Shown here in pieces: positions 6,325-41,187 of a DNA stretch of 64,000 bases. Numbering within the stretch: the first letter of the stretch is position 1; each line of letters begins with the position of its first letter. The DNA lies in the NCBI GenBank assembly GCA_951406725.2, contig OX597817.1, forward strand, positions 102,176,001 to 102,240,000. The letters run 5' to 3'. Source of the DNA: Octopus vulgaris. Lineage: Eukaryota. Position numbers and translations under genes: made by a program. Under the pieces are notes generated by a model that ran no database searches, had not been told where the DNA came from, and saw nothing but the letters and a program-made list of their open reading frames with translations.

Positions 6325-6359
<35 letters not shown>

Positions 6360-6369
<10 letters not shown>

Positions 6370-8370: not shown

Positions 8371-8373
<3 letters not shown>
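7117..8373 (+). mobile_element. Penelope-like (Neptune-type) 3' fragment: GIY-YIG endonuclease end plus pLTR
   Basis: ORF 7117-7560 NLIYVLTCAGCQHNYVGQT...H...H; closely similar to 43163-44310 (reverse complement) and 46615-47488; ends in (TA)n. Confidence 0.9.
8192..8233 (+). ncRNA. Minimal type I hammerhead, U3-A8 core variant
   Basis: AATTC-TTGAAAA-GTCA catta TGAC-GAAA-ACCGGT-TT-GAATT. Confidence 0.7.
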
Positions 8374-8407
<34 letters not shown>

Positions 8408-9586
8408 CACTGACAATTTGAGAGTGTGATGCTGTAAGTTGGGATATAGTTTGGAATTATAAAAAACAAAGAATGGAAAATGGAGAAACAATAGAAACAT
8501 TATTAGATCTCTTTTTTTTTTTTTTTAAGAATAGAAATTTCAGTTTGAATCTTAAAATATTTTTGCAACAGTTTTCAAATAGATTTTCAAATATACTTTA
8601 CTATTGGTGGAGACAAGTTTATTACAAATCCAGTGTTTCTCAAAGTGGGGTAAACACCTTACTGATGGGTTTAGGCTACTTCAGAATGGGGTGGAAGTAA
8701 CAAGTGATTAAAACTTACAATAAAGTTTTAATCAAACTTCTTTTGAATATAATTATGTTATGTACTTGGAAAGGTGCATGTTCTTTTTAAAAATCTAAGT
8801 GGAGTGTGAGACAAAAAGGATTGTTATAATCTTTCAATTATTGCATTACCATTGGTTGTCTATTTATATTATAGCTTATGCCTGTCTATAAAAACTTTCA
8901 TGGTTATAAAAATTTCAATAACATATCCACTCTTTAGCAACATCTCTCATTTCTCTTCAGTCTGTTTATTTTCAAGAATTCAGTACATAAAATAATAACA
9001 CACCAATAATTCACCATAATATATTGTTACTTCAACATTCCATTTCAATATATCTAGCTTTTTTGATGCCAACTCAATGGTTTTCATTTTCTCCTACACA
9101 CTTACTTAATATATCACTGCTTTCAAATCTCTCATACAATTCTATTAGCAGACATTCAAGATGCTTGTAATCTATTACTATAACTTAAAAAACAAAACAA
9201 AAAAGCATAAAAAAAACAACCCTGCTCTGTATTTGGCAATCTTTCATGGTTTACTAATTCTTTTTTTGTAAATGTAGCTCAGTGAGTGACTAATATGGTT
9301 TCAGTGTGAAGGAGAGGATATATGTTTCTTTAGTTCTTTCTGTCTATGTAGGAGAGCTGACAGCCTGTATATCATACCTCCTGTCTTAAAACACATTTCA
9401 AGTCACTTTCAGTGGCCAGGTTCACCAGCCTGTGCTATGAGAAGGTACAGCTCACTGGAATAAGTAATGTGAATATTACATAGCTTTGTTACTTTATTAC
9501 TTTCAAATACTGTACAGGACCTGTTACCATGCTTCAAAAAATCCGAAATTTCCAGAAATCCAGAATTATTGTGCAATATCATGCAA

Positions 9587-10124
9587 AGATGCAGGTATAG
9601 CAGTGTGGAAAGAAGCTTGCTTCCCAACCACATAGTTCCAGATTGCGTCCCATGACATGGCACGTTTGGCAAGTGTCTTCTACTAAAGACTCGAGCCAAC
9701 CAAAGCCTTGTGAGTGGATTTGGTAGATGGAAACTGAAAGAAGCCCAACATATTCATTTCTTTCTTTTTATTCTTTTCTTTGTTTCAGTCATTTGAATGC
9801 GGCCATGCTGGAGCACGACATTTAGTCAAACAAATCAATCCCAGGACTTATTCTTTGTAAGCCTAGTACTTATTCTATTGGTCTGTTTTTGCCGAACTGC
9901 TAAGTCACGGTGACTTAATCACACCAACATTGGTTGTCAATGCTGGAAAGACAAACACTGACCTGACAGGCTTCTTTCAGTTTCTGTCTACCAAATCCAC
10001 TCACAAGGCTTTGGTCAGTCTGAGGCTATAGTAGAAGACACTTGCTTAAGGTGCCGTGTAGTGGGACTGAACCTGGAACCATATTGTTGGGAAGCAAGCT
10101 ACTTACCACACAGCCACTGCTGCG

Positions 10125-10171
<47 letters not shown>

Positions 10172-10390
10172 GTGTTTTTGTGTCTTGTGTTTGTTCCCCA
10201 CCACTGCTGGACAACTGGTGTTGGTGTGTTTATGTCCCCATGACTAAGCAGTTTGGCAAAAAAGACTGATAGAATAAGTACTAGGCTTAAAAAAACAAGT
10301 CCTGGGGTCAATTGGTTCAACTAAAACACCTTTCAAGGTGGGGCCCCAGCATGGTCACAGTCAAATAACTGAAACAAGTAAAAGATAAAA
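9587..10390. mobile_element. tRNA-head SINE (+) interrupted by a second copy in the opposite orientation
   Basis: Head+ 9587-9750, tail- 9765-9960, head- 9968-10126, (TA)n, tail+ 10165-10390; family motif GGCAAGTGTCTTCTACTA...GGATTTGGTAGA. Confidence 0.8.
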
Positions 10391-10653
10391 GGTTATCATA
10401 CACTGTATTGAGTAAACAAACCCTGTTTTTGCATATGGTGTGTTAAAAGGAGTTTTATTCGTATCTTTTAAAAGGATTAATAAAAATTAATCATACTCTT
10501 TAGGAGTAATTAATTTGAACCCTTATCTGCAAAATAAAATCAGTTATTTACTTTTCATCTATAAGCATTATACTTAATACATGGTACGATATAGTTTAAG
10601 TGGATTAATAAATATCAAACAGACTCTGCTTTATTAATATGAATCTGTTAAAT

Positions 10654-12332
10654 GAATGAATGAATGAATGTTCGTCCTTCGACTTCGAAGATGACCATTG
10701 ACATCATTTGGTGGAATTGCTGCTGTGAGACCGGAGGTTGCTGGTGAGGTCAATCCGGGCAAGAAAGCCCCTCCCACAGGTGGGGCAGAAGTGGGTAGGG
10801 GCTGTGCTATTGGTGCAGGTGGCTCTGGCTTTCCGCATCTGGCGTTTCTGTTCTGCTGACTGAATCCGTCTCTCCTCGGCTGTCTTTGCTCCTGTGGTGA
10901 TTACGCTGCGCCAGGATGAGCGGTCGGCAGCAAGTGTCTCCCAAGTCTCTGTGCCGATGGAGAAGTCTTTGAGAGAGACTTTGAGACTGTCCTTGAAGCG
11001 CTTCTTCTGCCCTCTGACTTTGCGTTTGCCCTGGCTGAGTTCACCGTAGAAGAGCTGTTTTGGGATGCGAGTGTTGGACATGTGGGAGACGTGGCCTGCC
11101 CATCTCAGCTGGGCCTTGCGCATGATCGTGATGGTGCTAGGGAGATCTGCCTGCTTCAGAACTTCCGTGTCTGGGACTTTGTCCTACCAGCGGATGTGAA
11201 GGAGGTTCCGAAGACACCTGAAGTGGAAGTGGTTTATCTGGCACTCGTGCCTTCGGTAAGCAGTCCACATCTCGCAGCCGTATAGTAGGGTGGTAAGCAC
11301 AACTGCCCGGTAGACTTTCAGCTTGGTGTTGAGGCTGATTCCTCTCCGCTCCCAGACTTTCTTTCGCAGTCTCCCAAACGCGCTGCTTGCCTTGGAGATT
11401 CTGTTGATGATTTCAGCATCTATGTTGGCATTGCAGGAGAGAGTGCTGCCCAGGTAGGTGAAGTTTTCAACCGCTCGTAGGATCCGTCCATTCACCTTTA
11501 TCTGAGGCTCATGGTATTATTTGCCGGGGGCTGGCTGAAAAAATCACTTCGGTTTTCTTGGCACTGATGGTAAGACCGAAGTTTTCACAGGCTGATGAGA
11601 ACCTGTCCATCCCGAGCTGCATCTCCTGCTCATCGATTTCATTAAGGAAGGCTTCAGATGAGTTGCCGTCTTCAAGGACTCTGGCTGTCATTCCGTCGTG
11701 GGACTGGCGGACAATTGCAATAAATTTGCTGGAGCAACCAAATTTTCCCACGACCTTCCAGAGTCCCTCCCTCCTGACTGTATCGAAAGCCCTGGTGAGG
11801 TCAACAAAGGTCATGCAGAGGTCAAGGTGCTGCTCCATGCATTTCTCCTAGAGCTGGTGGGCGGCGAATATCATGTCAGTGGTCCCTTGACCCGCACAAA
11901 AGCCACACTGGCTCTCAGGGAGAAGGCCTTGCTCCAAGTGTTCCAGAAGGCGGTCAAGCAGGACTCGGGCCAGGATCTTGCCTGCTATGGACAAGAGGGA
12001 GATTTCTCGGTGGTTGTCGCAGGACTGCCAATCTCCTTTCCGCTTATAAATGTAGACGATTGTTGCGTCCCGGAAATCTTGAAGGAGTTGTTCCCTGTCC
12101 CACATCGACTGGAACAGGCTGGTGAGCTGACTGATCATGGTGGGGCCACCTGACTTGAACACCTCTGCAGGGATGGCGTCAAAGCCTGGAGCTTTGCCGG
12201 TGGACATTTTTTTGATGGCTCTGCTCACTTCCTTGACTGCAGGGGGAACAGCCAGCTCATGGTTTGTCGGCATCTGGGGGAGTCGTGCGATGGCTTCCTC
12301 ATTGATCTGGGCTGGTCGGTTGAGCACGATGT
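10654..12332 (-). mobile_element. 5'-truncated, internally deleted RTE LINE (RT pseudogene)
   Basis: ORFs with KAPGFD, LLPESQCGF, FVDLTRAFD, FTYLGS, QLRWAGHV and C-terminal CPTC zinc finger; (TTCA)n tail; 14-bp TSD TGAATCTGTTAAAT at 10640-10653 and 12333-12346. Confidence 0.93.
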
Positions 12333-12919
12333 TGAATCTGTTAAATACAATTTAGTTCTTTACGTTTCATAGTTTATTTTATATTTTAAGTGTATATTTT
12401 AGATTGCCTCCAGAAACCTGGAAAATACAGATACTTCCAGTCCCAAGCATGCCAGATAATTGATTTGGTTCCATATTGGTCTTTAAACAAAAGCTCAAGT
12501 ATAACCATCCTTACTACAAAAATCTTGTAATTGCACAGTACTAGTAAGAGCCCCAGAATGGTGTAGATTATGTAATATGTTCCTCTCTCTCTCTTTCTCA
12601 CATACAATAAGCAAGGAACCTCTAAATGCTCACTTCTAGAAACAGAAGCCAAATTTCCTTTAAGCAGTGTTACAATAAACAGAACAGACAGATAGACACA
12701 CATACACAGATAACTGACTTCTATAGTTTCTATCTACCAAATTCTACTCAGTAGGCATTAGTTAACTAGAGGCTATAGCAGAAAGCATTTCTTCCAGGCT
12801 ATCACCAGGTTGTGAAGCAAATATCTTAAGTACAACCTCATGGATATATCTGCATCTAAATGGTAAAATTTAAATATTTTTGTTAGAATATTGGCCTTAC
12901 CACTGAATTATCTGCTTAA

Positions 12920-12970
12920 GGCTCCTGATGAGAGTTCGCAATCTGAAACAGGTAATCCATCCACTGAGCC
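12920..12970 (+). ncRNA. Degenerate hammerhead-like remnant
   Basis: GGCTC-CTGATGA-GAGTTCGCAATCT-GAAA-CAG...CTG-AGCC, next to a TA tract; cleavage triplet missing. Confidence 0.3.
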
Positions 12971-14467
12971 TATATATAATATACACATATAGATATGTTG
13001 GTGTAAACAGGAAAAATAGAGCTCAAAATATGATTACATTTATATTTTTATTAATATTTAGAAGTAACAGAGTGACTGTGCAGACTTTTAAGCTAACATT
13101 TTAGATTTATATCACAGTATAACAGTTGGAGAATTTTGTTTCACTGTGACATTTGGAGATAACTGTAAAATAGCAGGATGAACAACATTCTTGGTTTTAC
13201 CATTTCCAACTCTGGAACAACCAGCATAGAGCTGACCATGGGAAAAGCAATGCAGCATGAAGCGAAGTCCAAAATTTTGAGTGACTGTCCTTGACTCTTG
13301 TTAATTGTATTATTGTAGGTAATGGAGATACAGTGGCACTATTTAATTTAAGAACACTTGTATACTAACCTTAAAATGACATTTTTTATATATTCAAATT
13401 GTAAATTGTGAATTAAGATGGATACTAAAATAAAGGAAATTTCACAAGCTTTAATATGGTATACAACTTTACAGTGTAACATCAACATGTTAATTTAAAA
13501 AAAAGCTTTATTTTTGCCTTATTGACCAATATAGGTAAAGTAATTTGCATGCTGTTACAATATTTAAGTTACTTAATAGTTGTAATTGGTAAGAAGACAA
13601 AACAGCACCAGAAACCAGAGCAAGGATCGCTCAGCTTTGTAGGCTGTAATGGTCATATAAAGCTATTTCAAACGAAACTGAATGCTCTACAATGCTGTCC
13701 ATCTTTATAAGGAAATTAATTATTATAAAGACTGCTCTCAACCTGGGCAACCAAGAAAAAGCAACAGCAAGAATGGATAGATACATTCATAGACTGTCCT
13801 CAAAAAAACTAAAAATGACCGCTGTTGACATTTAAAAAAAAAATTGGCAAAAATATGGACTTACTATTGGAGTGTCCACCATAAAAAAACTGTCTCAAAG
13901 AATTTGGATTTCTAAGAAGAGACTCTCATAAAAAGCCATACATTTCTTTAAAAAATAGATGTGCCTGAATACAGTTTGCAAAAGAGCATTTGAATTGGAG
14001 TTCAGCAGATTGGTTGAATGTGTTGTGGTCGGATGAGTCAAAGTTCAACTTGTTCGGCAGTGATGGCAAGAAGTATGTAAGAAGGGTTTAGGCAAAGAAT
14101 ATCATCCAGAATGCATCTGACCGACAATTAAGTGGAAGTGTGATGGTGTGGGGGTGCATGTCTGGAAAAGGCATTGGTCCTATAATCCGAATCAAGAGAA
14201 ATTATGAATAGTAAGTCCTATCTAGAAATATTGGATAAGACTATGCTTCCATATGTCCAAAAGCATTTGGGCTGATCTTGGACCTTCCAGCATGACAATG
14301 ACCTGAAATACAACATGCACCTATTGAGAGATTACATTAGGTCTAAGAGAATTCAGTTGATGGAGTGGCTGGTGCAATTGCCCGACCTAAATCCCATCGA
14401 AAATCTTTGGAAAAGTTGGGTAGAGCTGTCCAATGTAGTAAGCCAAAGAATAAGGTTGATTTTTTAA

Positions 14468-14687
14468 CCCTTTTGTTACTAACCTGGCCAAAACCGGCTC
14501 TGGCTCTGTGGTAAAATGTCTTGTTTCCATAAGTTTTGAATTAGAATATTCCACCAAGCCTTAGTCACTAGTTACATTCCTAACACTAGTTTAATGATAA
14601 CTAAGTTATTTTACTAAATTCTTTTTTATATTTAGAATAATTGAAAGAAACCCAGAGCATCTCAAAATAAATGCAGTAACAAAAGGG
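14468..14687. mobile_element. piggyBac-type MITE nested in Tc1
   Basis: TTAA|CCCTTTTGTTAC...GTAACAAAAGGG|TTAA. Confidence 0.9.
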
Positions 14688-14898
14688 TTAAACATTATTA
14701 GCCAAAACTAGGAAAAAATCTCAGGAACAGTGACAATTAATGATCTGAACAATTCTATGTTTCACAGATGCAAAGCTGTATTAAGTAATTTTGGATACCC
14801 AACCAAATACTGACTGTGTGAACTTATTGTTTTTTTTTTAATCTCAGTTTTTTTATTGATTTAAACCAATAAAATTAAATTTTACAAATCGTTCTTAA

Positions 14899-15975
14899 CC
14901 CTTTCGTTACTATATTTCTGACGAAAATACACCCCTTATGTGTTTCAATTAATTTCTAACGTAATCATAAATTTAGTCTGGTTTCATTAAACAACTATAA
15001 CTTTTTTATTTATCAATATATTAACGTGAATTTTGGAAGATAATTTAATGAAATGTTCTCAACCAATTCTATACTATAATTTTTGTCACAAAGTGACTCT
15101 AATTGCAGGTAGATACAGGTAAATTCAACAAAATATAAAATTATTAAAATTTTGTTCAAACATCGCTATAGAAAATGGGTTATTAGCTAATATTCAATTG
15201 GGTATACAACAAAATTTTACTATAGAATTTGTTATTCTGGGTAACTTTCTGATACCCATAATATTTATGGCAAAATAAGCCTTAATTTCATTTAAGGTTG
15301 TGGGAAACCACAAAGTACCCTTTCTTTCGTTTTGTTTACATTTAGCGTAACGGTTCGTTTCCGCCGTAATGATTTCAAATAGGCTCATTCGAAAAAGAAA
15401 TAGTCTAAGGCTTTACTCTTCTGGGAAAGTCTGTGGCTTGGTCCAGTTTCTTCAGAAAAATCACCGAAAGAAACAGTTTTTAAATTTTCACTCTATTCAG
15501 GTGCCAATTCATTTTCTTTATCGCTGTCGGAGCTCTCGGATTCACTGTTTTCACTTTCGGAAAATGAAACATCAGATTCATTATCAAATACCACGTGCTT
15601 TTTTTTTTCAGTCATAGAGTTAGATTTATGAAGGTCTTCAGTAGAAAATCCTTCGAATTCTGACTCGCTGCTTGATATAATGAAATTTGTATCCATTTTT
15701 TGTCAGAATTACAAATTTTGAAAACACAATAGGAACAAATTTCGGAAAAAAATCTCCCAAAATTCACGGAATTAAAATTAGACTTCGATTTTTGTACAAA
15801 ACTGTAGTTGAACTGTTTATGAAGTATAATACGTATTTTCACGAATGTACTAAAGAGATTTGCTCTGATATTCTCATTTAAATATGAATAGGTAAATTCG
15901 GGCGGTTTTGGGCGGTTTGGTCACATTAACCAAAATTTTTTTCGGGTGGTTTTGGGTGGTTTGGTATCGAAAGGG
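14899..15975 (-). mobile_element. Internally deleted piggyBac nested in Tc1
   Basis: TTAA|CCCTTTCG...CGAAAGGG|TTAA; subterminal GGGCGGTTTTGG repeats; N-terminal transposase remnant (acidic SESEFEGF, ETNRYA, EIKAYF) at 15194-15696. Confidence 0.88.
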
Positions 15976-16859
15976 TTAAATTAAATGACACTATAAATTA
16001 CGATAATTAAGATTTATTTTTAATTCAAAATTAATATGTTGAAGCTGTATACCATATAAAAGCTTGTGAAATTTTCTTTATTTTGATATACAGCTTAATT
16101 CACAATCTACAACTTGAATATAAAAAAAAAATGCCATTTTAACATTAGTATATTAGTATTCTTAAAATAAATGGCACCACTGTAACTGTCACAAAGTTTT
16201 GGTCAGTTTTCTAACACAGAAAGTTGTATTTATTATTATAGCCAAGGTAGACCGTTTGAAATCCAAATGCGCTTACAATAGATCCCAGTGCTGAATGTTT
16301 AAGAACCAAATGAAGGTCAGATTTTCAATCCCGGGATCATCCTAATTACAAAAAAGGTATTATATGTCTACATAGAGCAAATGTAGACCGAGATACAAGG
16401 GTCCCAGACTGACAGAATTTTACTTTTATTTATATAGATTTCTAGTTTCCATGCTAATCACAAAATGTTATTTATCTATTTATTGTTCTGGAACTTCAGC
16501 TAATCAAAGTACACTGGAGATCAGAATAGCCACACATTTCTGGTCTTAAAAATGAAAGGTGTTTGATCAAATTGACCTGGAGTTAAGTAACAATAACAAA
16601 AAGTATCCAGACCATCACCACTATTGCTACTACTACTACTACTACTACTTGATAGCTGTGGTGATAGTATTGCATATCACTGTCACCACCAACAATGATA
16701 ACAACTATGGCAGTGAAACTGTTGTAGTGGTAGTGCTAGTGGTTGTTATTATAATGACGGTAGCAATGTTACATTGCTATAACCTTTAAACTAATATCAG
16801 TCACCAAGGGGTGGTGGTGGTGACGGTACCCAAATCTCACAAACTAAGCAGCAAAATGG

Positions 16860-18517
16860 GTTAGTGTGATTTGTAAAACTGATGCTTAGATTTTAAGATA
16901 TCATCAATATTTGCCTTGGAATTGCTGCATCCAACCAAAAGAATTCTTTTCAAATGTTCATCAGTTAACCTCATTTGATGTGATGACTTCACAGACATAA
17001 GTTGTTCCAAATACTGATGCCATACCAGAGGCAAGTTTCATCAAATTTGAAAACTCATCATCAAGTAAACAACGATATAATTCAACAAGTTTTCCATCTC
17101 TTTCAACAAGTCCTTTACTTGCAAATCAATGAGCACCAGCAGTAGTTCAATTGCCACATGAAGTTTACAATAAAACTGATTCTGAAACAGAAGAATGTCA
17201 ATCAATTCTGTTAAGATCTGAAAATCTCTCCAAAAAATGCTTATTTAAATCATGAATAATAATCTTTGGAAACTCGAGGTTGACATCTGCAATTCCAGCG
17301 CGAAGATCTTTAAAACACTGAAAATGAGAGAAGTTTCCTCTTTCCAGTTGTGCTTCAACCAATGATAGCTTTCTCCAAAATCCTTTGATGATTCTGTAGA
17401 GATCTCAGTTAAGGGTATCCTTTCCCTCAAGTTTCAAGTTCAATTCATTCATGTGGATTGTGATGTCAACCAAAAATGACAACTTTGACAGCCAGGTAGG
17501 ATCTGACAAGTTAATCAGCTCTATCCTTTCCAGTGAGAAAAATATCTATTTCTCTTCAGAGCTTATAAAAACAAAAGAGGACATTATCGCAGCTGAGCCA
17601 CCCCACTGCTGTGTGATAAGTCAAATCACAGGATTCAGAATCAATTTCTTCAAAAAAAGCCTGAAACTGGCAGTGAAGATCATGAAGTTCACCATAGAAA
17701 CGAATTATGAAAAGAATGTTTAAACACAGAAACGGTGAACGAAGTTCACCGTAGAAACGACTGGTTTCAGTACGCAAGAAATATCTGTCTTTCCCAGAGT
17801 GCTTGCTGATGTATAATGCTGTGTATAAAAGAGCAACCAGAAGTTGAAGATCTTCCAACTTAGTCCTGATCTTCCTCACTAAACCCTTCCTCACTCCAGC
17901 CATATTTTTTCCTCCATCAACTGTAACACATTAAAGCTGATTCCACTGAGGTTATAGCTTTGCAAAGTTTTCTGCACTTCCATGAAAAATGCCTTCTCCA
18001 GTTGTTGTTCTGTGCATGCTGCAAACAGATGACAACTCTTCTGTGATCTAAAAGACCAAATTAACACCATGAATGAACACGAGAAGTTGTGACGTACTCA
18101 AGAGATCAGTAGACTCATCCAGTGCCAAAGAAAACCACAAGAAGTTCCTAGCTTTCTCGCGTATCTGTAGCACTTTGTTCTCTCCAAATTCTTGTGTTCT
18201 CCACACAGCTGAACTTGCTGAAAGGCTGAAACTTCGAAGCAAATCAGCTTTCTCAGGACACAAGTCATTTGCTGCTTCCATCATACACTCTTTGATGAAG
18301 TTGCCGTCAGTAAACGGTTTTCCTCGCTCTGCCATCTTATGCACTATTTTGTAACTTGTACGAGTGACAGATTCATTTTCAGCAAACATTCTCATGAAAA
18401 GAATGTTTAAACACAGGAATGCAAGTTAAAACACGATCGCTGCAGGAATGAACTCTCATTGCAGGTACTTACACAAAAGATACAGTGCAACGGCGGGCTG
18501 AAGTTTGGTGACCCCTG
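16860..18517 (-). mobile_element. Decayed hAT (Charlie/SPIN, GTF2IRD2-like) transposon
   Basis: Terminus CAGGGGTCACCAAACT at 18517-18502; KPFTDGNFIKECM, FSLALDESTD, YHTAVGWLS, FGTTYVCE remnants; other end not located. Confidence 0.85.
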
Positions 18518-20522
18518 CTCTATATGATAAAAATAAAATAACAGCAACGAGTTCATAAAAAAAAAACTGAGCAAATGTAGAAAAAGAAAACCCACTATTT
18601 CCCAACCCCGTCTCTCTCTCTCTCTCTCTCTCTCTCGCTCTCCCTCTTTCCATCAACCAAACGCTCATGGATCTATCTGTTGCTTCCTGAAATACTCTGT
18701 TCTCTATGATAGAGAGTGGGGTACAATGAACAAATAAAGTAGGACCAGTGTGATTGTCACATTGACAAGTACTTTTAATACACTGTCAAGTGGAACGCCT
18801 GTCTATCTATGTTATAAGTGCATAGAATACACGTACAAAAAGCTGCTTGTATACACATACACACACACGGTCAGAGTAACGTAGATAAAACAAAGTATAA
18901 AGCAGCTCGCACTTAAAAAAGCTTTCCAGTTTTCTGCTACAACAAAATAGAAGGGTATCATAAATAAATAAATAAATAAAAAGAAAAAGGAAAAAGAAAA
19001 GAGATGGGGAAAAGGGGGCAACTAATTGGGAAATGCAGAAGAAACAGTAGCTCTCACCTAATTTTTAATTATTAGGTGTTTAGGGGAAATGAAACTACAC
19101 GTAGTGTGATGTATCAATGAAATAATTAGCCAGCATATACGAAGTATTTCTATTTTCAACTCTGTAAGTATAACATATTGAAAAGTGTGTAATATCATTA
19201 GATGTGGATATTGATATGCAGTACAATGCATGCGTTCGTGTACAAAGGTGCATATACATGAAAAAGTGAGAGATCAAAAAAAAAAGTTGTTTACTGCATG
19301 AATATCACATGTATATATTATACATTGCTGTTCAATGGTTTCTACATTTATAAAAATATCATAATATAACTTGCATACACAAACGTGATGTTGTAGGTGA
19401 GGGAGCTTCAACGTATCCGTTTGGCTTGCTAGAAATAGCAGCTAAATGCCTCTCATATTACAATACTAATTTACAAAGGACACACACACACAAAGTATGG
19501 GATGTTCGCGGCCTTTGATTGTAAAGTCTGCTTGATCACAATAAAAACAACCCCACTTATATTGGGAATACAGAATCCAATGGAGTAGTTTTTGTTGTTG
19601 CTATAGGAAGGAAGTTTAGTTCTACTGCGAGAAAATCTTGCAACACTGACGGTGACAATATCAGAATGTCTTGAGCAATAACGAGTATGTTCTCGAACTT
19701 CGGTTTTTAACATCTATTCTAACAATCACTGGTATTAATGTGAAGCTGATGTGCAACAAAAGATTGGTATTACTTTATGTTTTAACAGTGATTTATAACT
19801 ATATAAAAAAAAAGATACCAAGTACCAACTGAATCCAGTGTATAAACGCACTCACACTTCCCCAATATTTCAAGACTGATTTTGTATGTATGTGTGCATG
19901 TATATATATATATATATATATATCAAACGATATACTTCGAAATACAAATGTAAATGCTATCTATTAATGGCTAACGAACTTGTTTTCGTTTAGAAAAATC
20001 ACGTCAGTTCAGATCGAGTGGTCAAGGTATTTGTAGACATCTCATTTTTTGTTCCAGACATAATACCAACATTATTCAATGCTCTTCCTTTTTAAAGATA
20101 GTAGGATATGATCTGAGAGAAATTTGGTTGCTATTTCTAGCGAGTTGTTCGACCAAGTAGAGGTTCCTTCGTTATACAGTCTGCTCTTCACTTTTGTTTC
20201 AAGTAAAGATAAATTTATGTCTTGATAGTTTACCAATGTTTATTGCTGGTAACATTTCCAGAGATCATGCTTATTCCTGACAGTCCAGATTAATCGAGAT
20301 ATAAAATAAAATGCTCAAAGAGATAACGTACTCATGCACTAGATTTGAACTCAAAACACACGCGCTGGTACCCCACTCAACTAATTTTCTATTTAAAACT
20401 TATTTATCTTGGATAATGGTACTTCGTTATCAAACTTAGAATAATGAAAAGAGCTATGTCTGATTGAATGAAACAGCATTTGAATCCAGGAAAGTAAATA
20501 ATAAGTCTACTCTTCACATAAT

Positions 20523-21620: not shown

Positions 21621-22216
21621 TACTAACTTCGGGCATTAAAGTGTGGTTATGCTGGAGCACCACTTTGAAGGGTATTTATTTCATCGGTCTGGTACTTTAT
21701 CGGTCTCTTTGTCCGAATCGCTAGTTTACGGGAACGCAAGCAAACCAATACCGATTGTTAAATGGTGGTGGGAAACAACAAACACACACACACACACATT
21801 TGCAACGGACTTCAACACAGTTTCCATCAACCAAATTCACTCGCAATGAATGTAAATATAGAGGTAAGACAACTGTAAATCAGAATGTAAAGATAAACTT
21901 CAAATAGTAGCTAGAGGGGATATTGTGAAGCACACAGAATATGTACCTAAAGTTGGTCGAAACGAGGTCAAGAGAGTGTGCATGAGATACTCGTCGGGTG
22001 GTACTTTGGTAAGTAGACACCTCAAACTAGCACCCGGAACTAAATTACTCCAGCCTGATATTACATGTAAGTACACTTGAAAAAAAGGCGGAGGGGGACG
22101 TTGAATAGGTAAAGGAAAATGTTTAAGAATATAATCCATATACGGTAAAAATAAACACCAATGCAAACAAGAGCACTCAGAGAGCGCAAACCTCCGCCAA
22201 AGCAACACCAACGTCC

Positions 22217-23898
22217 CGATTTTTTATTACCTACAAGGGGCCAAACATAGATGGGACATTACAAAACAATACAGGACACATACTCGGGGAAATAAAATAC
22301 AGAAAGAAATCGAGTGAAGAAGAAAAATAAAAAAAACGAATGAAAATGATAAAATGAGGCGCAATGCGCACTCGACCCTCGAAATCCAGTGGTTACATTA
22401 CACGTTATTTTGAACAGTTTTGTTTTTCCTTTTTTTTTTAATTGTTCATAGTTTTTTAGGCTTTTCAGCTCTTTATGTTGAATTACGGTTGGTAGAGCAT
22501 CAAACCACACTGGCCCGCCAAATGAAATGAAATACTTTCTATATGTTTTTATAAATGTGTCGTATCTATCCTCATTCAATACTACACACTTCTGTTCTTC
22601 ATTGAAATCCTCCCTAGGCAGTTTCACCCTTATTAATCCCTTCCACTTGGAAATCCTCCTGTCCACATCTACATTCTTTTCCTAGTATACTATGAATGCC
22701 TTATTTCTAAAACGTGTTGTACATTCTCTTCTACTGATTCTCTCGCTTTTGGTTCTGTCTCTACTGTCTGCGTATGTTTGAAGATAGGCGGTTACCTACC
22801 TTTTTTGAGCGTCCTACTGGTCCCTTCGAGTGTTCTCTTGCTTTAGCCTCTTTCCTCCTTTTGGGGCTGACAAACCCGTCACTCCCCTCATTTGCCGCTT
22901 TCGTTCTGTCTTTCTTCGGTTTCATCTCTTCCGTATCCCTAGTGCACTCCATATCGCTTTTGCCGACTCCGTCTTTTATTGCTTCACTTGGTACTCCAAT
23001 CTCCACTTCTTGATCCCTCTCCACAGCCTTCTCACTCCAAGGAGGCTTGTGCTTGGGGCACTGCGTCTTCATGTGGCCTTTCACTCCACATTCGTAACAA
23101 TTTGGTCGGCGTCCCTCAACAATCGCTTTGAGGGATCTCTCTCCCAGAATCTCTATCTGATAGGGGATCCTTTCAATGTCTTCGAAAGTGGCAAAAAGCC
23201 ACATCTCGACTCCGTATTCCCTCTTCCAACTGTCTCAAATTCGGGATTCTCCTCGGTGGCATCCACAACAGCTGTCACCAACTACTCTAGCTTTATTTCT
23301 GGTGGCACCCTTCCAATACGAATGCCTGCCTCTATACGTGGGCAGCAGCGTCACCTTTTCAGTGCATAAAATAGTGGTGGAATGTGAGGCCGTCTCTTTG
23401 GTGGCAAACCTCACCTCCACCGTACCATATTTCTTTCCTCGGCTAACGAAAGTTGTCGTTTTCATCAGGGGTCCCAAACATTCCCCCACGTCATTTTCTG
23501 ATAGAATTTCAATTTTATTGGTAGCGATCGCTTGCGTGCGGTAACACCACCGTCCTATCACTCTTATCCTCGACCGTTTCTTCTGGAGGGACCAGCTTTA
23601 CTGCGTTTCCCTCCCTTTTTTACAAACTGTTCACTTCTTCTTATCTCTTCCACATTTACTATTATCAGTTTCGCGTCCAACGGCGCAGCCGCTCCCACTG
23701 CAACAGTTTTTGCATAGTTCTCCATAATGAAAAACTTACTTTTCACCCCTACAATTGGGAGAAAACAGAAACAAAAACAATCATGCGCGAGTCGCTCAAC
23801 AATGACACAATATCAACAACGGATAACCTCGAAGAGAAAAGCCTCAGCATGCAACAACAATTCAAAACCGTGGTCAAAAGTAACGAAACTCATAGTCT
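22217..23898 (-). mobile_element. ORF1-only Tx1/L1-type retroelement, copy 1 (frameshifted)
   Basis: MENYAKTVAVG...RGKKYGTVEVRF...CCHC knuckle CYECGVKGHMKTQC; 3' end CCCCTTGTAGGTAATAAAAAA; no EN/RT. Confidence 0.8.
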
Positions 23899-23913
23899 GC
23901 AACACCAACGTCT

Positions 23914-25682
23914 ATAATTTTTTATTACCTACAAGGGGCTAAAAGTAGAGGTTGTACATTACAAAGACAATACAAAACACATAATCGAGGAAATAAAAAT
24001 ACAAAAAGAAATCGAGTAAGGATGAAAAATAAAAAGAACGAATGAAAATATGAAAATGATAAAATGAGGCCCAACACCTACTCAACCTCCGAAGTCGAGT
24101 GGTTACATTTAGACATTTTTGGGATATTCCCCCCCCCCCACTTTTTTTGTATAATTTAAAAAGTTCACATCTTCATCATTTTTTTAATATATTGTTCATA
24201 TTAAAAAAAAAATTAAAATCTTTATATTCAATTACGGTTGGTAGGGCATCAAACCACACCGGCTCACCCAATGAAGTTATATAGCTTCTATATGAATTTA
24301 TGAACGTCTCGTATCTATCGACACTCAATATTACACATTTTTCTTCTTCCTTAAAATTCTTCCTGGGTAGTTTCACCCTTATCACTCCTTTCCACATCTA
24401 CATCCTTTTGCTTGTATATTACGTATGCTTTATTTTCCAACCTGTGCTTTATCTTCTCTTCCACCGATTCTTTCTCTCTTGGTTCCGTCTCTACTGTCTG
24501 CGTATGCTTGAAAATAGGCGGCTCCCTACCTGGGGAGTGGGGGGCGTCCTATTTGGTTTTACTGCTGGTTCCTACGAGTGTTCTCTTGATTTCGACTTTT
24601 TCCTCTTTTTGGGGCCGACAAACCCGTCACTCCTTTTCTTTGCCACTTCCGTTCAGTCTTCCTTCGACTTCACTTCCTCTGTATCTCTGGCGCACTCCTT
24701 ATCGCTTTTGCCATCTCTGTCTTTCATTGCATCAATTGGTACACCAATCTCCGCTTCTTCTTGGTCTTTCTCCACAAACTTCTCACTCTGAGGAAGCTTG
24801 TGCATGGGTCACTGCGTCCTCATATGGCCTCTACTCCACATTCGTAACAATTCGGCCGACGACTCTCAACAATTACTTTGAGGGTACTTTCTCCCTCAAT
24901 CTCTATCTCAATGTCTTCGAAAGTGGAAAAAAGCCACATCCCGATACCGCATCCCCACCAGTTTAACGTGTTCGTTCTTCCCACTGATCCCAATTCGGGA
25001 TTCTCCTCGGTGGCAGCCACAACAGTCGCCACCAACCACTCTGTCTTTATTTCTGGTAGCACTCTTACTATTCGAATCCGAACATTACGCTTGCCCCTAT
25101 TCGTGGGCTGCAGCGTAACCTTTTCAGTAGGTAAAATAGTGGTGGAATGTGAGGCCGTCTCTTTGGTGGCAAACCTCACCCCCACCGTACCATATTTCTT
25201 TCCTCGGCCAACGAAAGTTGCCGTTTTCATCAGGGATCCCAAACATTCCTCCACGTCGTCTTCTGATATGATTTCAATTTTATTGGTGGCGACCGCTTGC
25301 GTGCGATACACCACCGTCCTATCACTCTTATCCTCGACCGTTTCTTCTGGAGGGACCAGCTCTACTGCGTTTCCCTCCCTTTTCACAAACTGTTCACTTC
25401 TTATAACATCTTCCATTTTTAACGTTATCTGTTTCGCTTCCAATGGCGTAGCTGATCCCACTGCAGCGGCTTTTGCATAACTTTCCATAATGAAAAAGTT
25501 ACTTTTCAGCCCCACAATGGGGAGAAAACAGCAAAAAACAATCGCGCGCGTGTCGCTCAACAATAATTTTCAAAAAACAGTTTCAATAACAGACAGTCTC
25601 GAAGAGAAAGCCTTCAACATGTAAAAACAATTCAAAACCGTGGTCAAAAATGACGAAACTCACACAAATAAGTTGTTAGTCT
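23914..25682 (-). mobile_element. ORF1-only Tx1/L1-type retroelement, copy 2
   Basis: ORF 24820-25563 (MESYAKAAAV...RRPNCYECG); same 5' UTR and 3' tail as copy 1. Confidence 0.82.
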
Positions 25683-25697
25683 GCGACACCAACGTCC

Positions 25698-27460
25698 TTG
25701 CAGCCGCTGGTTTCGGCCCGGCCTTCCGTGGGTGGATCCACTGCTTTATACAGCGACAGCGAATCGATAGTTCAGGTGAATGGTTTCTTTTCGGAGCCGT
25801 TCTGCATTGAACGATCGATGCCCTCTCTCCCCGCTTTTGTACGTTTTGGCCCTCGAACCATTGCTGAGAAAGTTGGAGGCTATGAGGGGCACTCCGCAAG
25901 ATCTAGGGTGCGGAAAGTCAGCTTCGGCATACGCGGATGACATCACCGTCATCGTATCCCGGGTCGAGCACCTACAGTGGGTAGGTGAAGCCATAAGGGA
26001 TTACAAAGCGGTGGCAGGAGCAAAAATTAACCGGGATAAATCGGTCAGCTTGCTACTCGGAACCTGGAGGGGCAAGTCGATGCCGTCCGACAGCATTGGA
26101 ATCTGGTTAGGTCCGGATTTCCAGATAAAGAAGAAGTGGTGCGAGGTGGCGGGCGGGGTTGCTCTCCTAACTCAAACCTGGTCTGAGCGGAAGCTGTCCC
26201 TGAAAGGGAGGTCGGAGGTCGCAGAGGTGTTTATAGTATTTGTTATTACCTACCGCCTGATCGTCGTCCCTTGTCCCGATTCGTGGCTGAACAAGTTGGA
26301 ACGCATGCTCTTCCACTTTTTGTGGAGGGGCAGGGGACCTCTTGTAAGGCGCTCTATCTGCTGCCAAAAACCACTGAAGGGTGGGATAAGGATGCCATGG
26401 CCAAAAATGCGTTGAGGCTTAGGCACCTCTGGCTTTACCTGGACGGTGAACAGGTGTGGTCTCCGTTCGTCAAGCTGTTATTTTCACGGTTCACATCCTT
26501 TACTGAACTGGACTCATGGATTAAGCGTAGACCGATGTTGGGCGCGTGGCATGCAGAATGTCATTAGGCCCTCGTGCTTCTCTCACAGTCGGGCAATGTA
26601 GTGGCGGGGGTGCTACCTCGTCCTTCTATAGAGGGTTAGTAGAGTTCAAGTGTGACGACGTCCTGGGAGAAACCCTGGGTTCGATAAAGCTCAACTCACC
26701 AGCCTATACCGAAGAACATTTGGGCCAGGGCCTCTGAATAATTACCAGAAGTCCCTGGCATGGCAATGTTACAGAGGCACTTTACCTGTTCGAGATACGC
26801 TTTTTAGACACGGGTCTGCGCCTTCGCCTGCTTGTCCAAGATGCGGGCAGGACAGTGAAACTTCTGCATGCGATTGTGCAATGCTCGAAGGTTTCGGAAC
26901 TCTGGGCTTATTATGTCGAACACTTGCTGTCACATTCGAGAAAAGTACAACTGTCGCGCGAATCTATAATTAAGATTGTTCTGCCGTCCTCCCTAAATTG
27001 GGAAGAGCAGGTTTCTTTTCTCTCGGTAGTTGCTGCTGCGAAGGAGGTAGTATGGAAGACGAGAGTGAAAGGGATTGTGATAGGCATTTTTATCTTCAGT
27101 CTTGGGTTAGTTAACTTTTTCGTTTTCCACATGAAAAGAAAAATATGGCTGGAGAAGAAATGCCTGTCGCAAAGTGGCTTTCGTAAAATATGGAAGTCTG
27201 TGGCAAGTATGTTGAGAGTGAAAGAACCTGTTTAAGCGAGAGCATAAAAAGGAAAAACGAAGTCTTCAGTGTGAGAATGTGGTTTGTGGGGTCAACCACG
27301 TCCTCCGCTTCACTTTATTAATCATACATTCGTATTTTAATTTGAATTTTTAAAATTGATCATTTATACTGTTAATCTCATTCGATCCCCGACCTCTTAT
27401 TTGTTTGTCTGTCCTTGTATCGTCCCCTGTTTCTTTAACCTATATGGTAAATAAAGAAAA
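25698..27460 (+). mobile_element. 5'-truncated Tx1/L1-clade ORF2 (RT and C-terminal Cys domain) pseudogene
   Basis: CPLSPLLYVLALEPLLR, SAYADDITV, GAKINRDKS, LSLKGR, CPRCG...HAIVQC; 3' tail GGTAAATAAAGAAAA. Confidence 0.9.
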
Positions 27461-28715
27461 TGAAGTCGAGTAGTTACATTTAGACCTTATTTTGGACAGT
27501 TTTCTTTTTTTTTTTTTTAAAAAAAGAAAGAGTTCACATTTTGATAATTTTTTTTATATTGTTCATATATATTTTTTGTCTAAAATCTCTCAAATCTTCA
27601 TACTCCACCACGAGCGGCAGGGTATCATACAACACCGGTCCGTCAATCAGTCACCAATTCACGATATGAATTCATGAACACGTCGTATCTTTCGTCATTC
27701 AATAGAAAAACACCTTTCATTCTCCTTGAATTTCTCTCTGGGCAGCTTTATCTTTACTAGTCTCTTCCACTTGGCTATTCTCCTTTCTACCTCTACACTC
27801 TTTACGCAGTAGACTAAGAATGCCTTATGTTTAAATTATTTCTCTCTTGGTTCTGTCTCTACTGAATGCTTGAGTTTAGGCGGCTCCCTACCGTTTTGGG
27901 GGGCGTCCTCTCTGTTTCTGCTGCTGGTCCATGCGAGTGTTCTTTTGATTTCGACGTTTACCTACTTTTGGGGCAGACAAATCCGTCACTCCTATCCTTT
28001 GCCGCTTTCGTTCAGTCTTCCTTCGACTTCACTTCCTCTGTATCTCTGGAGCACTCCTTATCGCTTTTGCCATCTCCGTATTTCAGTGCTTCAATTTTTT
28101 TCTCCAATTTCCACTTCTTGGTCTTTTTCCACAGTCTTCTTACTCTGAGCAGGCTTGTGCTTGGGGCACTGCGTCCTCATATGGCCTCTCACTCCACATT
28201 CGTAACAATTCGGTCGACGACCCTCAACAATTTGGGGGAACTTTCTCCCGTGATCTCTATCTGGTAGGGGATCCTCTGAATGTCTTCGTAAGTGGCAAAA
28301 AGTCACATCTCGACACTGCATCCCCACCAGTTTAACATGCTCGTTCTCCCCACTGGTCCCAATACGGGATTCTCCTCTGGGGAGACCAGCTTTATTGTGT
28401 CTCCCTCTCTTTGCACAAACTGTTCGCTTCTTATTATCACTTCCATATTAATTTTTATCTGCTTTGCATCCAACAGAGTAGCAGCTCTCACTGCAGCGGT
28501 TTTTGCGTAGCTTTCCATAATAAAAGCTAATAAAAGCTCCCCACAATGGGAAGAAAAACAGAAAAAGAAAAACCAGTTACGCACGAGTCACTTCAACAAT
28601 AATTTTAAACAGTAATATAAAACAATTTTAACAACGGACAGTCTCAAAGAGAAAGTCCTCAACAATCCAACCGTGGTCAAAATTGACGAGACTCAAACAA
28701 ACAAGTTGTTACTCC
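27461..28715 (-). mobile_element. ORF1-only Tx1/L1-type retroelement, copy 3 (internal deletion, 3' tail missing)
   Basis: MESYAKTAAV...CYECGVRGHMRTQC; LVSPEE fused directly to NPVLG. Confidence 0.8.
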
Positions 28716-29689
28716 GAGACACCAATGTCCTCTAGCCAGAGATGATTTTTAAAATGAGAATATCTGAAATAAAAATCGACTGCTCTCGCAAACGAGATTA
28801 CTAAAAATGAACCCGAAAGCTCTCAAAGATTAAGTAAAAAAAAAACGGAAAAATAATCCAGAATCCTTGTCCGGTACCGGATCGATCTCAAAATCTAATC
28901 AGTTCGTGACAGTCAGGAGGCCAAACATCACTGAAAGTTTCATCCGAACCCATTCAGTAGTTTTTGAGCTATCTTGTTCACGAACAAACAAACAAACAAA
29001 CGCGACTGGAAACAATCCCACCGCTTTGGCGAAGGCGGAGGTAATGAAAACGAAAGGTGTGCGTGTGTGAAAGTTCTATCAATGGAGGAGCTCTGAAGAG
29101 AATCTAGCTATAACGAGAAGCAAAAGAATAGATCTGTATACAGAAATCACAAGGGTGTGTAGAAACATGCGAATTCAGAAGACTGACGTCTAACATCAAG
29201 AGAAGGGCAATGTCATATTTAATGTTTAGTGGGAAGTAAGCGCACAAATCATATTTTTATTGGTTGGTTGAGAGGAATGGGCCCCATGATATTTGCTGGT
29301 CCTCTCAGTTGGCATGATTGATTGTTGCAATCGATGTGCAGCCTGAATGTCTGCAGAAAAACGTAGGGAGAGAAAGAACCACAGTTTTCCGGTTCAAATA
29401 CTTGCAACAAAATTACTCTGTGCTAAGGCACCTAAGTAGCCCCTAGATTGTCGCCGATGTGTAGTAAAAGCTACAGAGAGGTGTAAGAACAGATATGTGC
29501 AAAAGCCACATTAATTTACAATAGTGGGCAAATTCAGAAATCATAAGAACGTATTGTAGATGAATGCGATTCACATCAATGTACAGCTGCGCCGACACTG
29601 AACAGTTGTCCAGGGGTCCATACAAGTCTTGGGACTCAATCCTAATGAATATATGCAGTTGCTGGGAATCAATAAATAAATACTGGCGC

Positions 29690-36555: not shown

Positions 36556-37160
36556 TCATCATCATCATCATCATTTAGCGTCCGCTTTCCATGCTAGTAT
36601 GGGTTGGACGGTTCAACTGGGGTCTGTGAAGCCAGAAGGCTGCATCAGGCCCAGTCTGATCTGGCAGTGTTTCTACGGCTGGATGCCCTTCCTAACGCCA
36701 ACCACTCCATGAGTGTAGTGGGTGCTTTTTACGTACCACCCGCACAGGTGCCAGACAGAGCTGGCAAACGGCCACGGACGGATGGTGCTTTTTACGTGCC
36801 ACCTGCACGGGGGCCAGGCGAGGCTGGCAACGGCCACGATCGGATGGAGCTTTTTACGTGCCAACGGCACGGGGGCCAGGCGAGGCTGGCAACGGCCACG
36901 ATCGGATCGTGCTTTTTACGTGCCACCGGCACGGGGGCCAGGCGAGGTTGGCAACGGCCACGAACGGATGGTGCTACGTGCCACCGGCACGGGGGCCAGG
37001 TGAGGCTAGCAACGGCCACGAACGGATGGTGCTTTTTACGTGCCACCGGCACGGAGGCCAGTCGGGGCGGCGCTGGCAACGGCCACCATCGGATGGTTCG
37101 CTTACTTGTCACCGGCACTGGTATCACAGCTGCAATTTCCATTGATGTTGGTCGACTTCG
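36556..37160 (-). mobile_element. RTE LINE 3' UTR containing a ~62-bp GC-rich minisatellite (~6.5 units, 36721-37120)
   Basis: (CAT)n end; units GGTGCTTTTTACGTGCCACCGGCACGGGGGCCAGGCGAGGCTGGCAACGGCCACG at 36721, 36784, 36846, 36908, 36970, 37028, 37095. Confidence 0.85.
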
Positions 37161-37202: not shown

Positions 37203-38925
37203 TGATTGATTGATTGATTGATTCTAGTTTCAGCTCACGAGCTGTGGCCATGCTGGGGCACCGCCATTTGGTGTTACTACATGGTTTTACTTCACGAATG
37301 CTTTTTAGCAACTGCCATTTGGTGCATGAGAGAGTTCGATGCAGCTGCCCTCATCTGCACCTCCTGCCGTGAAGTTGGTTCATCTGGGATACCTGACAAG
37401 AAGAGATCCAGTTTCATTTTAAAGACATCTGCATCCACCCCATGCAGGTCTCTTAGGTTCTTCGGGAGGATATTGAAGAGCTGTGGGCCTCGGAAGCCCA
37501 GGCTATCACAGTATATTGTCCTACATCTTGATGGCAAATTTGGAGTCCTAGGCACCACGCAGTGGCGCCCAGTTCTGGCATTTGTGTAACTCTCGATGCC
37601 AAAGTTTGGGACAAGTCCTTCAGGATCTTCCAGATGTATATTATGGCATATCTTTCTCGCCTACACTCCAAGGAATAGAGTTTTAATCTCTTGAGTCTTT
37701 CCCAGTAGCTTATATTCTGCACAGAGGCTATCTTCTTCGTGTAGCTACGTTGGATCGCCTCAAGTTCTGTGATCAACTTGACACTTGATGGTGACCATAG
37801 CTGAGAGCAATAGTCAAAGTGGCTTAGGACGAGTGTCCTCCAGAGGACCATCATGGTTTCTTGTTCTCTTGTTCTAAAGGTTCTGAGAATCCATCCGGCC
37901 AGTCGTCTACATTTCATTGCCAATTTAGCAACATGTACACGAAAGGTTGCGTCATCACTCATGTAAATACCCAGGTCACGCACTGATTGTGCCTCTGGGA
38001 TTGCAATTCCTCCGGGTCCTATGTATTCATTGGGTATTGCATTTAGTTTTGCATGCTGATAGCATAAAGCTTGAAACTTTCAGCATTGAACTGCATGCTA
38101 TTCTTTTCAGCCCACTTGTATATTTTGTCCAGCTCACATTGCAGGCGTTTAGTGTCCTCAGGGTTCTGTATTGCCTGTGAAACTTTTGTATCATCTGCAT
38201 AACTTGTGATCGTGGCTCTCTGCGTGGCTGAGGGCATGTCTGAGAGGGCCATTATGAACAGTAGTGGTCTCAAAACAGTGCCCTGCGGAACACCGCTCAC
38301 TATTTGCGTGTTAATGGAAGTGGCCCCATTGGCTACTACCACCTGACTCCTATCTTTCAGAAAGTCATGAAGCCATTCTCCCAGTTTTCCAACTATGCTA
38401 AAATCACGCAGTTTGTGACATATCATTCCATGATCGACTTTATCAAAGGCCTTTGCAAAGTCGAGATATATCACTTCCACATTTGAGTGGTTGAGCAGTC
38501 GTTTCAGCACCCAGTCATAGTGTTGTAGGTGCTGAGTTAAGCAGCTTCTTCCTGGTCGGAAACCATGTTGGGTGTCAGGCAGCAAGTCATTTTCTTCAAG
38601 GAAGGTGATCAGTTTCCTTCTGACTATTCGTTCCATGACATTGCTGATGTGTGAGGTCAGAGAGATAGGTCTATAGTTCTTGGCCTCCGCTCTGCTACCT
38701 CCTTTATAAATAGGGCATATTTTACCTTCCTTCAGTTTTCTTGGAAGTTTGCCAGCTGCAAGGAAGCTTTGAAAGAGGAACTGCAGTGGTCTTGCTAGGA
38801 CTCTCTTACATACTTTTAGGAGGATTGCCGGGAATCCATCGGGGCCAGTAGCTGAGTCTGTTTTCATTTCATCTATAGCCTTTATTACATCGTCTTCCTT
38901 TATATCGATGTAATCTATCGTCGCC
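37203..38925 (-). mobile_element. 5'-truncated CR1-clade LINE (RT pseudogene)
   Basis: [65 protein letters not shown]; (ATCA)n tail at 37203-37222. Confidence 0.93.
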
Positions 38926-38970
38926 GATATATATGATATATATATGTAGAATACATATAATATATATAAT

Positions 38971-39046
<76 letters not shown>

Positions 39047-39101
39047 TATATATATACATACATATATATATACATATATATATGTATATAATATATATAG
39101 A

Positions 39102-39159
<58 letters not shown>

Positions 39160-39172
39160 GTATATCATATAT

Positions 39173-40980
39173 ATCATCATCATCGTTTAACGTTCGTTTT
39201 CCATGCTAGCATGGGTTGGACGGTTCGGCCAGGGTCTGGGAAGCCAGGAGGCTGCACCAGGCTCCAGTCTGATCTAGCAGTGTTTCTACAGCAGGATGCC
39301 CTTCCTAACGCCAACCACTCCGTGAGTGTAGTGGGTGCTTTTTACGTGCCACTGGCACAGGGGCCAGAGGAGGCTGGCAAACTGCCACGATCGGTTGGTA
39401 CTTTTACGTGTCACCGACACGGACGCCAGTCAGGCGGCGCTGGCACCTGTCACGTTCGGATGGTGCTTTTTACGTGTCACCCGCACGGGTATCTTTACAA
39501 TTTCCATTTGATTTTCATTTTGATGTTGGTGTTGACGTACTTGACTCAATAGGTCTCCACAGCGTGTCACTCTACGATCCAAGGTTAGTACAGCAGGCCG
39601 TCCTGCGAGCCTTGAACTCACTTCATTTGTCGGGTCTTCATAGTCACAGCATATCTCAGAGGTCTCGGTCTTCGTCATTTCCTCTGTGAGGCCCTACGTG
39701 CCACCAGCACGGGTATCACAACTACAATATCCATACGAATTTTATTTTGATGTTGATGGACTTGACACAATAGGTCTCCTCAAGCACAGCAGGCCGTCCT
39801 GCAAGCCATGAACTCACTTCATTGTCAGGTCTTCGAAGTCACAACATATCTCCAGAGGTCTGTCTTTCGTCATAGCCTCTGTGAGGCTGAAGGTACGAAG
39901 GTCATGCTTGACCACCTCGTCCTATGTCTTACTGGGTCTACCTCTACCCCGGATTCCTTCAACAGTTTGGGAGTGGCACTTCTTAAAAAACATCTCTCCT
40001 CATCCATCCGTAGTACATGTCCATACCAACGCAAACGTCTCTCCTGCACGCTGCATCCGAATGCTTCTTATGCCCAACATTTCTCTCAGGGCGCTAACAC
40101 TGTCGTGCATGGACACTGACATTACACATCCAGCAGATCATGCTAGCTTCATTTCTTTCGAGCCTACGCATGTCCTCCGCAGTCGCGGCCCATGTTTCAC
40201 TGCCGTGAAGCATGGCAGTTCGCACACATGCGTCGTACAATCTACCTTTCACTCTGAGCGAGAGACCCTTTGTCGCCAGTAGGGGAAGAAGCTTCCTAAA
40301 CCTTGCCCAGGCTATTCTTATTCTAATGGTAACACTCTCTGAGCATCCATCCCCACTACTAACTTGCTCACCTAGGTAGCAGAAACTATCAACTACTTCT
40401 AGTTTCTTCCCCAGGAGTGTAATGGAATCTTTTGTTTGAGTATCAATAGTGTCTATTGCCCCTGTGCATCTGCCGCACACGAAAGCTATCTTCTCGGTTA
40501 ATTTTTCTTTGATGTTGCTGCACCTCTTATGTGTCCATAGCTTACACTGGGTACATCTTATGGAGTTTCTACCTACACCTTTTCTAAAGATCGAGCAGGG
40601 CCACCTACCTAAAGGGGTGTGTGGTGAGTTTGCCTTCCTAGTTACTAGAACTTTGGTCTTTGCTACATTGACACTAAGGCCTTTTGATTCTAAACCTAGC
40701 TTCCACATACGAAATTTCTTCTCTAGTTCCGGTAGTGATTCTACTACGAGGGCTAGGTCATCAGCATAGAGGAGCTCCCAGGGCAACCCGTCTTGAATTC
40801 CTCTGTTATTACCTGGAGGACTATGATGAATAGAAGGGGACTGAGGGCTGAGCCTTGGTGGACGCCAGCTTCTACCCGGAATTCTTCACTATACTCATTG
40901 TCAATACTTACCTTACTAACAGCCTCTCTGTAAAGGGCCTGTACAGCCCTTATTAACCAGTCGTCAATCTCCAGTTTCCG
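39173..40980 (-). mobile_element. 5'-truncated RTE-clade LINE with a PHD-like Cys insert
   Basis: GVHQGSALSPLLF, ELLYADDLAL, CTQCKLWTHKRC...CGRC, FCYLG, HGSETW; 3' UTR ending (TGA)n. Confidence 0.92.
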
Positions 40981-41105: not shown

Positions 41106-41134
41106 ATATATACTATATATATATCTTATATATA

Positions 41135-41180
<46 letters not shown>

Positions 41181-41187
41181 CATATAT

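Follow-up and report, generated by a model that had tools for sequence, protein, structure and literature searches.

Organization of the array

The window, a microsatellite-rich stretch of 64,000 nucleotides of Octopus vulgaris DNA, contains a 6.5-kb insert composed of three ORF1-bearing units (U1, U2, and U3) and a 5'-truncated Tx1-like RT piece (Table 1). Self-BLAST and alignment identified U1 (1682 bp) and U2 (1769 bp) as two colinear ORF1-only units that are 76% alike over 1839 columns. Each begins with a leader of about 200 nt upstream of ORF1, and the 3' region following ORF1, about 230-300 nt long, finishes with AATAAAAAA. The tails of U1 and U2 are 86% alike over 159 nt and share an identical final base. 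The ~1.7-kb units with a leader, a CCHC-knuckle ORF1, a 3' region, and this end, as proposed in the initial annotation, were thereby confirmed, and so was the lack of RT within them: tblastn with P0004, an intact RT relative, matched only 25694-27232 in the window. The absence of EN was judged from the leader, ORF1, and tail, which together occupy the whole of U1 and of U2. The units had also been described as having complete 5' and 3' ends, which is correct for the ends and not for the ORF1s, both of which carry frameshifts and stops.

The same comparisons revealed U3, a third, damaged unit, about 74% alike to U1 and U2. The initial annotation included neither U3 nor the host repeat and the four copies of the target that are described below. 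Likeness among the units varies from 69% to 90% by segment, and which two units are closest differs from one part of the element to the next. This suggests that source elements recombined or that conversion took place within the array, and it is unlike the pattern of one recent tandem duplication. The array is real, old, and dead.

Table 1. Features of the array and its host repeat (positions within the window).
Feature	Position	Strand	Content and evidence
Host repeat, short arm (its 3' end)	22165..22216	-	Subterminal inverted repeat and terminal palindrome, finishing in target copy 1; loose ends of 161 and 217 X10 contigs at 22165/22166; joints 22216 to 28733-28739; arm match
Target copy 1 (15 bp, 15/15), at U1 poly(A) end	22202..22216	+	Motif also at the empty site
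U1, ORF1-only	22217..23898	-	ORF1 from ATG 23725 to near 22450, interrupted by indels and stops
Target copy 2 (14/15 letters of copy 1), U1 head / U2 tail junction	23899..23913	+	Junction confirmed by X1 contig 23568-24054 with zero differences
U2, ORF1-only	23914..25682	-	ORF1 ATG 25488, 222 open codons, then broken
Target copy 3 (14/15), U2 head / RT piece junction	25683..25697	+	Final 4 letters double as RT coding sequence; X10 record 14 spans 25592-26094 at about 92%
5'-truncated Tx1-like ORF2 piece	25698..27459	+ (opposite to units)	RT C-terminal part, zinc-binding region, 3' UTR, A-tail; RVT_1 E 4.8e-9
U3, third ORF1 unit	27460..28715	-	Internal deletion of about 340 nt; 3' end truncated where it meets the RT tail, unit tail absent; zf-CCHC E 2.6e-4
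Target copy 4 (12/15), at U3 head	28716..28730	+	Motif comparison
Host repeat, long arm (its 5' end)	28731..29045	-	Short AAAC microsatellite and second subterminal repeat

Fixed target and empty site

The four copies of one 15-bp motif lie exactly on the unit boundaries, and target duplications flank U1 and U2 on both sides. Contigs from two public runs, X1 and X10, were placed on 21900-29400; the statements below draw on the 15 joints listed of 573 and the 22 loose ends listed of 2461. Joints from 22216 to 28733, 28736, and 28739 were found in 21, 6, and 11 contigs of X1 and in 20, 6, and 9 contigs of X10, and 11 of the 15 joints listed were of this empty-site type. These contigs skip the intervening 6.5 kb, all of which is therefore an insert, and the empty site holds a single copy of the motif. 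At 22217, one base beyond the target, 7 X1 contigs (summed depth 106.5) and 13 X10 contigs (761.1) were still aligned and read T, indicating that other loci appear to be filled at the identical site, although contigs across 22217 could include other A-tailed inserts. The summed depth within the U1 tail at 22293 was close to that at the target junction, at 75.7 (X1) and 837.2 (X10).

One X10 contig spans the U2 head, the target, and the RT piece with about the same identity (about 92%) as an outer-flank contig, and the array therefore probably predates the split between the organism of the window and that of X10. We considered a recurrent head-target-RT junction and rejected it, as the five X10 contigs over 25702 are ordinary RT copies and the junction is bridged by this one record only. 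The raw-read runs X22 and X23 covered 10/30 and 5/30 bins, mostly by low-complexity partial matches that give no copy number.

The host repeat

The arms flanking the insert join into a repeat of ~380 bp. Its bins reach a summed depth of 25,000-520,000 compared with 21-311 in the outer flanks; summed contig depth is not copy number, yet the two ranges lie orders of magnitude apart. The sequence features of the repeat are subterminal inverted repeats, a terminal palindrome, a microsatellite, and T-rich flanks. The arm match is 12/13, lying about 25 nt inside one end and within a few nt of the opposite end, and the palindrome and flanks were read from the sequence. The available text of PMC4067079 describes subterminal inverted repeats, a terminal palindrome, and a microsatellite in HINE/DINE-1 elements, which are non-autonomous Helentrons; the host repeat resembles them in these features (the palindrome being 3'), in its T-rich flanks, in having no coding capacity, and in its very high abundance. 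Its ends thus look Helentron/HINE-like. A literature search with the host-repeat motifs returned no related paper among the matches listed.

The ORF1 protein

The zinc knuckle of ORF1 was recognized by Pfam zf-CCHC in U1 (E 1.4e-4) and U3 (Table 1), and that of U2 is split by one frameshift and one stop. ORF1 extends about 115 codons past the knuckle and its low-complexity linker, forming a C-terminal domain of about 115 residues that is held in a single frame in the relative P0124. All three copies contain frameshifts and stops and are dead. The best relative, P0001, is 56% identical to the first 222 codons of U2, and a profile-free search retrieved 458 proteins at E<=0.001, among which those named come from Octopus bimaculoides, O. 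sinensis, O. vulgaris, and Argonauta. Judged by these relatives, the ORF1 family appears broad and old in octopods.

An AlphaFold model built from 53 sequences had a mean pLDDT of 78.5. Tandem-RRM proteins were the top Foldseek matches of the model, with weak E-values and low TM-scores, and the Atlas neighbours of ORF1 were CCHC, ZCCHC3-RBD, and DUF4283 clusters. ORF1 is accordingly predicted to be an RNA-binding protein of the LINE type I ORF1 kind, with tandem RRMs, a CCHC knuckle, and a C-terminal domain. Type I ORF1 has been linked to Tx1-clade elements in non-mammalian animals, according to the available part of PMC5203782. No Transposase_22 match was found in the window pieces or in P0001, and the units are not HAL1 proper. 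No EN or RT Pfam match occurred among the rows listed for 29 long ORF1 relatives, which is expected for any two-ORF LINE. Searches of metagenome loci with the ORF1 and RT proteins, and searches of viral loci and prokaryote genomes, found nothing.

Several protein records of the family deserve mention. The P0074 cluster comprises seven near-identical ORF1-family proteins of O. vulgaris, whose contigs have six different lengths. One sequence of the cluster appears under three consecutive accessions (CAI9739099-101, O. vulgaris), representing either a tandem ORF1-only array or isoforms. In the gene models P0072, P0088, and P0136, pieces of ORF1 are spliced to WD40, LDL-receptor, and astacin genes, and these models are probably annotation artefacts; P0072 and P0088 carry the name of O. 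bimaculoides.

In each of the three copies, the C-terminal domain lies in the -1 frame. A programmed -1 frameshift was rejected: P0077, a close relative, stays in frame through the site, the domain occupies a single frame in P0124 and P0043, the lesions differ (a 13-nt loss in U1 relative to U3, and changes in a C/A run in U2 and U3), and folding revealed no common structure. U2 (about 24660) and U3 (about 28020) have in common an in-frame TGA in the linker and an equal frame offset, which may reflect a defective common source or gene conversion.

Selection on ORF1

The initial annotation had suggested comparing dN/dS of ORF1 among copies. For the three pairs of units, dN/dS was 0.56 (0.36-0.91), 0.32 (0.18-0.60), and 0.52 (0.29-1.03) in the N-terminal part, and 0.47 (0.25-0.91), 0.53 (0.31-0.95), and 0.75 (0.42-1.39) in the C-terminal domain; 2 of these 6 intervals include 1, and the three pairs are not independent. 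Permutation tests revealed a third-position excess in the N-terminal part (p 0.04, 0.003, and 0.12) and in the C-terminal domain (p 0.001, 0.0035, and 0.012), and the wrong frames of both gave p >= 0.3. The linker exhibited no selection signal. As a control, the 3' region read in the +1 frame yielded p 0.0095 for U1/U3 over 30 codons, a false positive, with intervals below 1 for two pairs. The comparison, with values of 0.32-0.75, thus points to a modest signal of purifying selection remaining in the broken copies, which could also stem from full-length master elements.

These results bear on the possibility that local tandem duplication amplified a single dead LINE copy with an internal deletion, there being no mobile ORF1-only family at all. 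The head-to-tail order would agree with such an origin, as would the one premature TGA common to U2 and U3, which are closest to each other in the linker. However, the codon-position bias between copies argues against it, as do a repeat unit consisting of exactly one element plus the 15-mer, the other filled sites apparent in both X1 and X10, and the spread of the P0074 cluster over different contigs, and we regard this origin as very improbable.

The RT piece and its tail

The RT piece is 61% identical to P0004, an intact C-terminal half of ORF2. For P0007, the cluster mate of the RT, the top Atlas entry was the TX1 149-kDa family (score 0.98), and P0007 is nearer to L1 ORF2p (E 1e-41) than to R2 (1e-22). 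By these Atlas and pairwise matches, the piece appears Tx1-like. Its exact end at the target hints that the nuclease of this RT family may cut the same 15-bp site. At target copy 3, an overlap of 4-5 nt belongs to the target and to the RT codons alike (microhomology), and the A-tail of the piece abuts the cut 3' region of U3. Twin priming of one full-length RNA, giving the RT piece together with U3 or with U2, was rejected on geometric grounds: the A-tail is on the inside, and U2 and the RT piece have a target copy between them.

The unit tails had been said to resemble loosely the tail of this neighbouring RT fragment, and the resemblance proved to exceed that of shuffled sequences. Aligned with the RT tail, the last 80 nt scored 46.5 (U1) and 51.0 (U2), whereas shuffled sequences averaged 29.3 and 28.3 (p 0.004 and 0.001); with the last 12 nt fixed, p was 0.053 for U1 and 0.009 for U2. 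Among the 172 80-mers of the window that end in AATAAA, only the two unit tails themselves scored above this likeness, which is the best non-self match. Folding revealed no hairpin common to the tails.

The shared tail and target raise the possibility of an obligate two-part system, in which octopod Tx1 would have split into co-dependent ORF1-only and ORF2-only elements with a common tail and a common target in a Helentron-type repeat, each supplying what the other lacks, and the ORF1-only lineage would have diversified across octopods. The meeting of the RT piece and the ORF1 units at one target, with a tail in common, and the breadth and age of the ORF1 family would fit this arrangement. However, the RT piece is 5'-truncated and its head is unseen; searches of metagenome and viral loci with the ORF1 or RT protein were empty, and no full-length ORF2-only element was found. 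We consider such a division of labour improbable.

The main rival, premature polyadenylation of a full-length element, is somewhat less remote, if still unlikely. Here, the units would be by-products of full-length Tx1 whose transcripts end at, or are primed at, a poly(A) signal after ORF1; they would have no lineage of their own, and selection would have acted in the full-length masters. Such by-products account equally well for the identical ends, the target specificity, and the purifying selection, and the summed contig depth of the RT piece in X1 (6,342-20,035) far exceeds that of the ORF1 bins (58-563), as 5' truncation of one family predicts. On the other hand, the likeness of the unit tail to the 3' end of the RT element itself is easier to reconcile with a tail that was kept than with an internal signal, and the tail depth approximately equals the junction depth. 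As to whether copies continue from ORF1 into ORF2, the result by which the initial annotation was to be judged, no joint links a unit to RT among the 15 listed of 573, and the contig evidence leans towards units that are ORF1-only.

The window holds several other repeats. Five more RT fragments (11851-12351, 38046-39164, 40097-40885, 41107-42558, and 57218-58360), including one frame with a PHD-finger match, gave no tblastn match to the Tx1-like RT. At 43170-47432, inverted arms of 787 nt, 99% complementary, surround an RT frame (44294-45757; RVT_1 E 4.5e-8), and a 343-nt inverted match connects 43964-44306 with a GIY-YIG frame at 7087-7560; the arrangement resembles a young Penelope-like element bearing inverted terminal repeats. 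At 2177-3618, a tandem duplication of 491 bp has several 98-100% inverted arms and reflects a recent fold-back rearrangement or an assembly artefact. A perfect 147-bp palindrome without a spacer occupies 55085-55378, and a dispersed repeat with 62-66-bp tandem units occurs at 36651-37118, 39173-39500, 53406-53734, and 4491-4583.

A model for formation of the array

We consider it likely that the array represents a target-specific, Tx1-derived, HAL1-like ORF1-only family that was moved in trans and inserted repeatedly at one site. Mobilization in trans by Tx1-type LINE enzymes is what we infer from the target-bounded ends, the selection signal in ORF1, and a tail in common with the Tx1-like RT piece, whose junction lies at this target as well. 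The earlier proposal of an invertebrate half-Tx1 family mobilized in trans is partly supported: it fits these three observations, from which the movement itself is deduced. Absent from that proposal was the most telling aspect of the array, namely that insertion recurred at one site of a host repeat.

In this model, the family would have arisen from a Tx1 LINE through loss of ORF2, with the head, ORF1, and tail kept. The unit's own ORF1p would pack its RNA, so that selection retained ORF1. The ORF2p of a putative partner would recognize the common tail, nick the plus strand where the 15-mer ends on the right, and prime on the poly(A). Every insertion would duplicate the 15-mer and renew the target, leading to head-to-tail stacking. 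The RT piece would have been the last to arrive, priming within the T-rich 3' region of U3 in the opposite direction, and would have joined at target copy 3 through the microhomology, deleting the U3 tail. HeT-A forms head-to-tail arrays; HeT-A and Ag-Sponge belong to other clades, however, and the units are non-telomeric and separated by target duplications.

Relation to known elements

The available part of PMC5786205 places non-autonomous LINEs with ORF1 in the Jockey (HeT-A), L1 (HAL1), and CR1 (Ag-Sponge) clades, with none from Tx1; HeT-A and Ag-Sponge resemble the units in being ORF1-only. HAL1 (half-L1) of mammals, as covered in the accessible portions of PMC5753468 and PMC5786205, is likewise a non-autonomous LINE derivative that encodes ORF1p only and keeps head and tail. 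However, the ORF1 of HAL1 is of the L1 Transposase_22 type, whereas that of the units is type I (predicted RRMs and CCHC), and HAL1 is mammalian and L1-derived, whereas the units come from a mollusc, have a putative Tx1-like partner, and keep to a strict target.

Tx1 families target non-autonomous DNA transposons, and their SINEU passengers are often arranged in tandem (PMC4494074, from the text available). Xenopus Tx1 in Tx1D, and crocodilian Tx1-Mar and SINEU in Mariner-N4_AMi, resemble the array in that Tx1-clade machinery enters a non-autonomous DNA transposon, and the SINEU passengers resemble the units in being non-autonomous and stacked at the same target. The units, in contrast to the passengers of that source, encode ORF1, and the host here looks like a Helentron-type HINE rather than piggyBac, Mariner, or Harbinger. 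In O. vulgaris, 80 L1-Tx1 families have been counted, with no mention of ORF1 in the supplement as far as accessible (PMC13282606), and the accessible part of PMC9115989 makes no mention of Tx1. Among the papers listed, our literature search found neither an ORF1-only family derived from Tx1 nor a Helentron that serves as a Tx1 target; Repbase and Dfam lay outside its scope, and prior annotation there is possible.

Implications

The ORF1-only lifestyle of LINEs is already known in mammals and insects, and known mechanisms are unchanged by the finding. If our preferred reading of a trans-mobilized family holds, the Tx1 clade and the molluscs would join the short list of LINE lineages giving rise to ORF1-only passengers, and such a passenger would inherit a strict target choice without encoding a nuclease. 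The findings also suggest that many octopus gene models annotated as 'CCHC-type domain' are transposon ORF1s. Because its fixed target makes the family easy to census, the question of why a LINE parasite keeps its own ORF1p would become directly askable.
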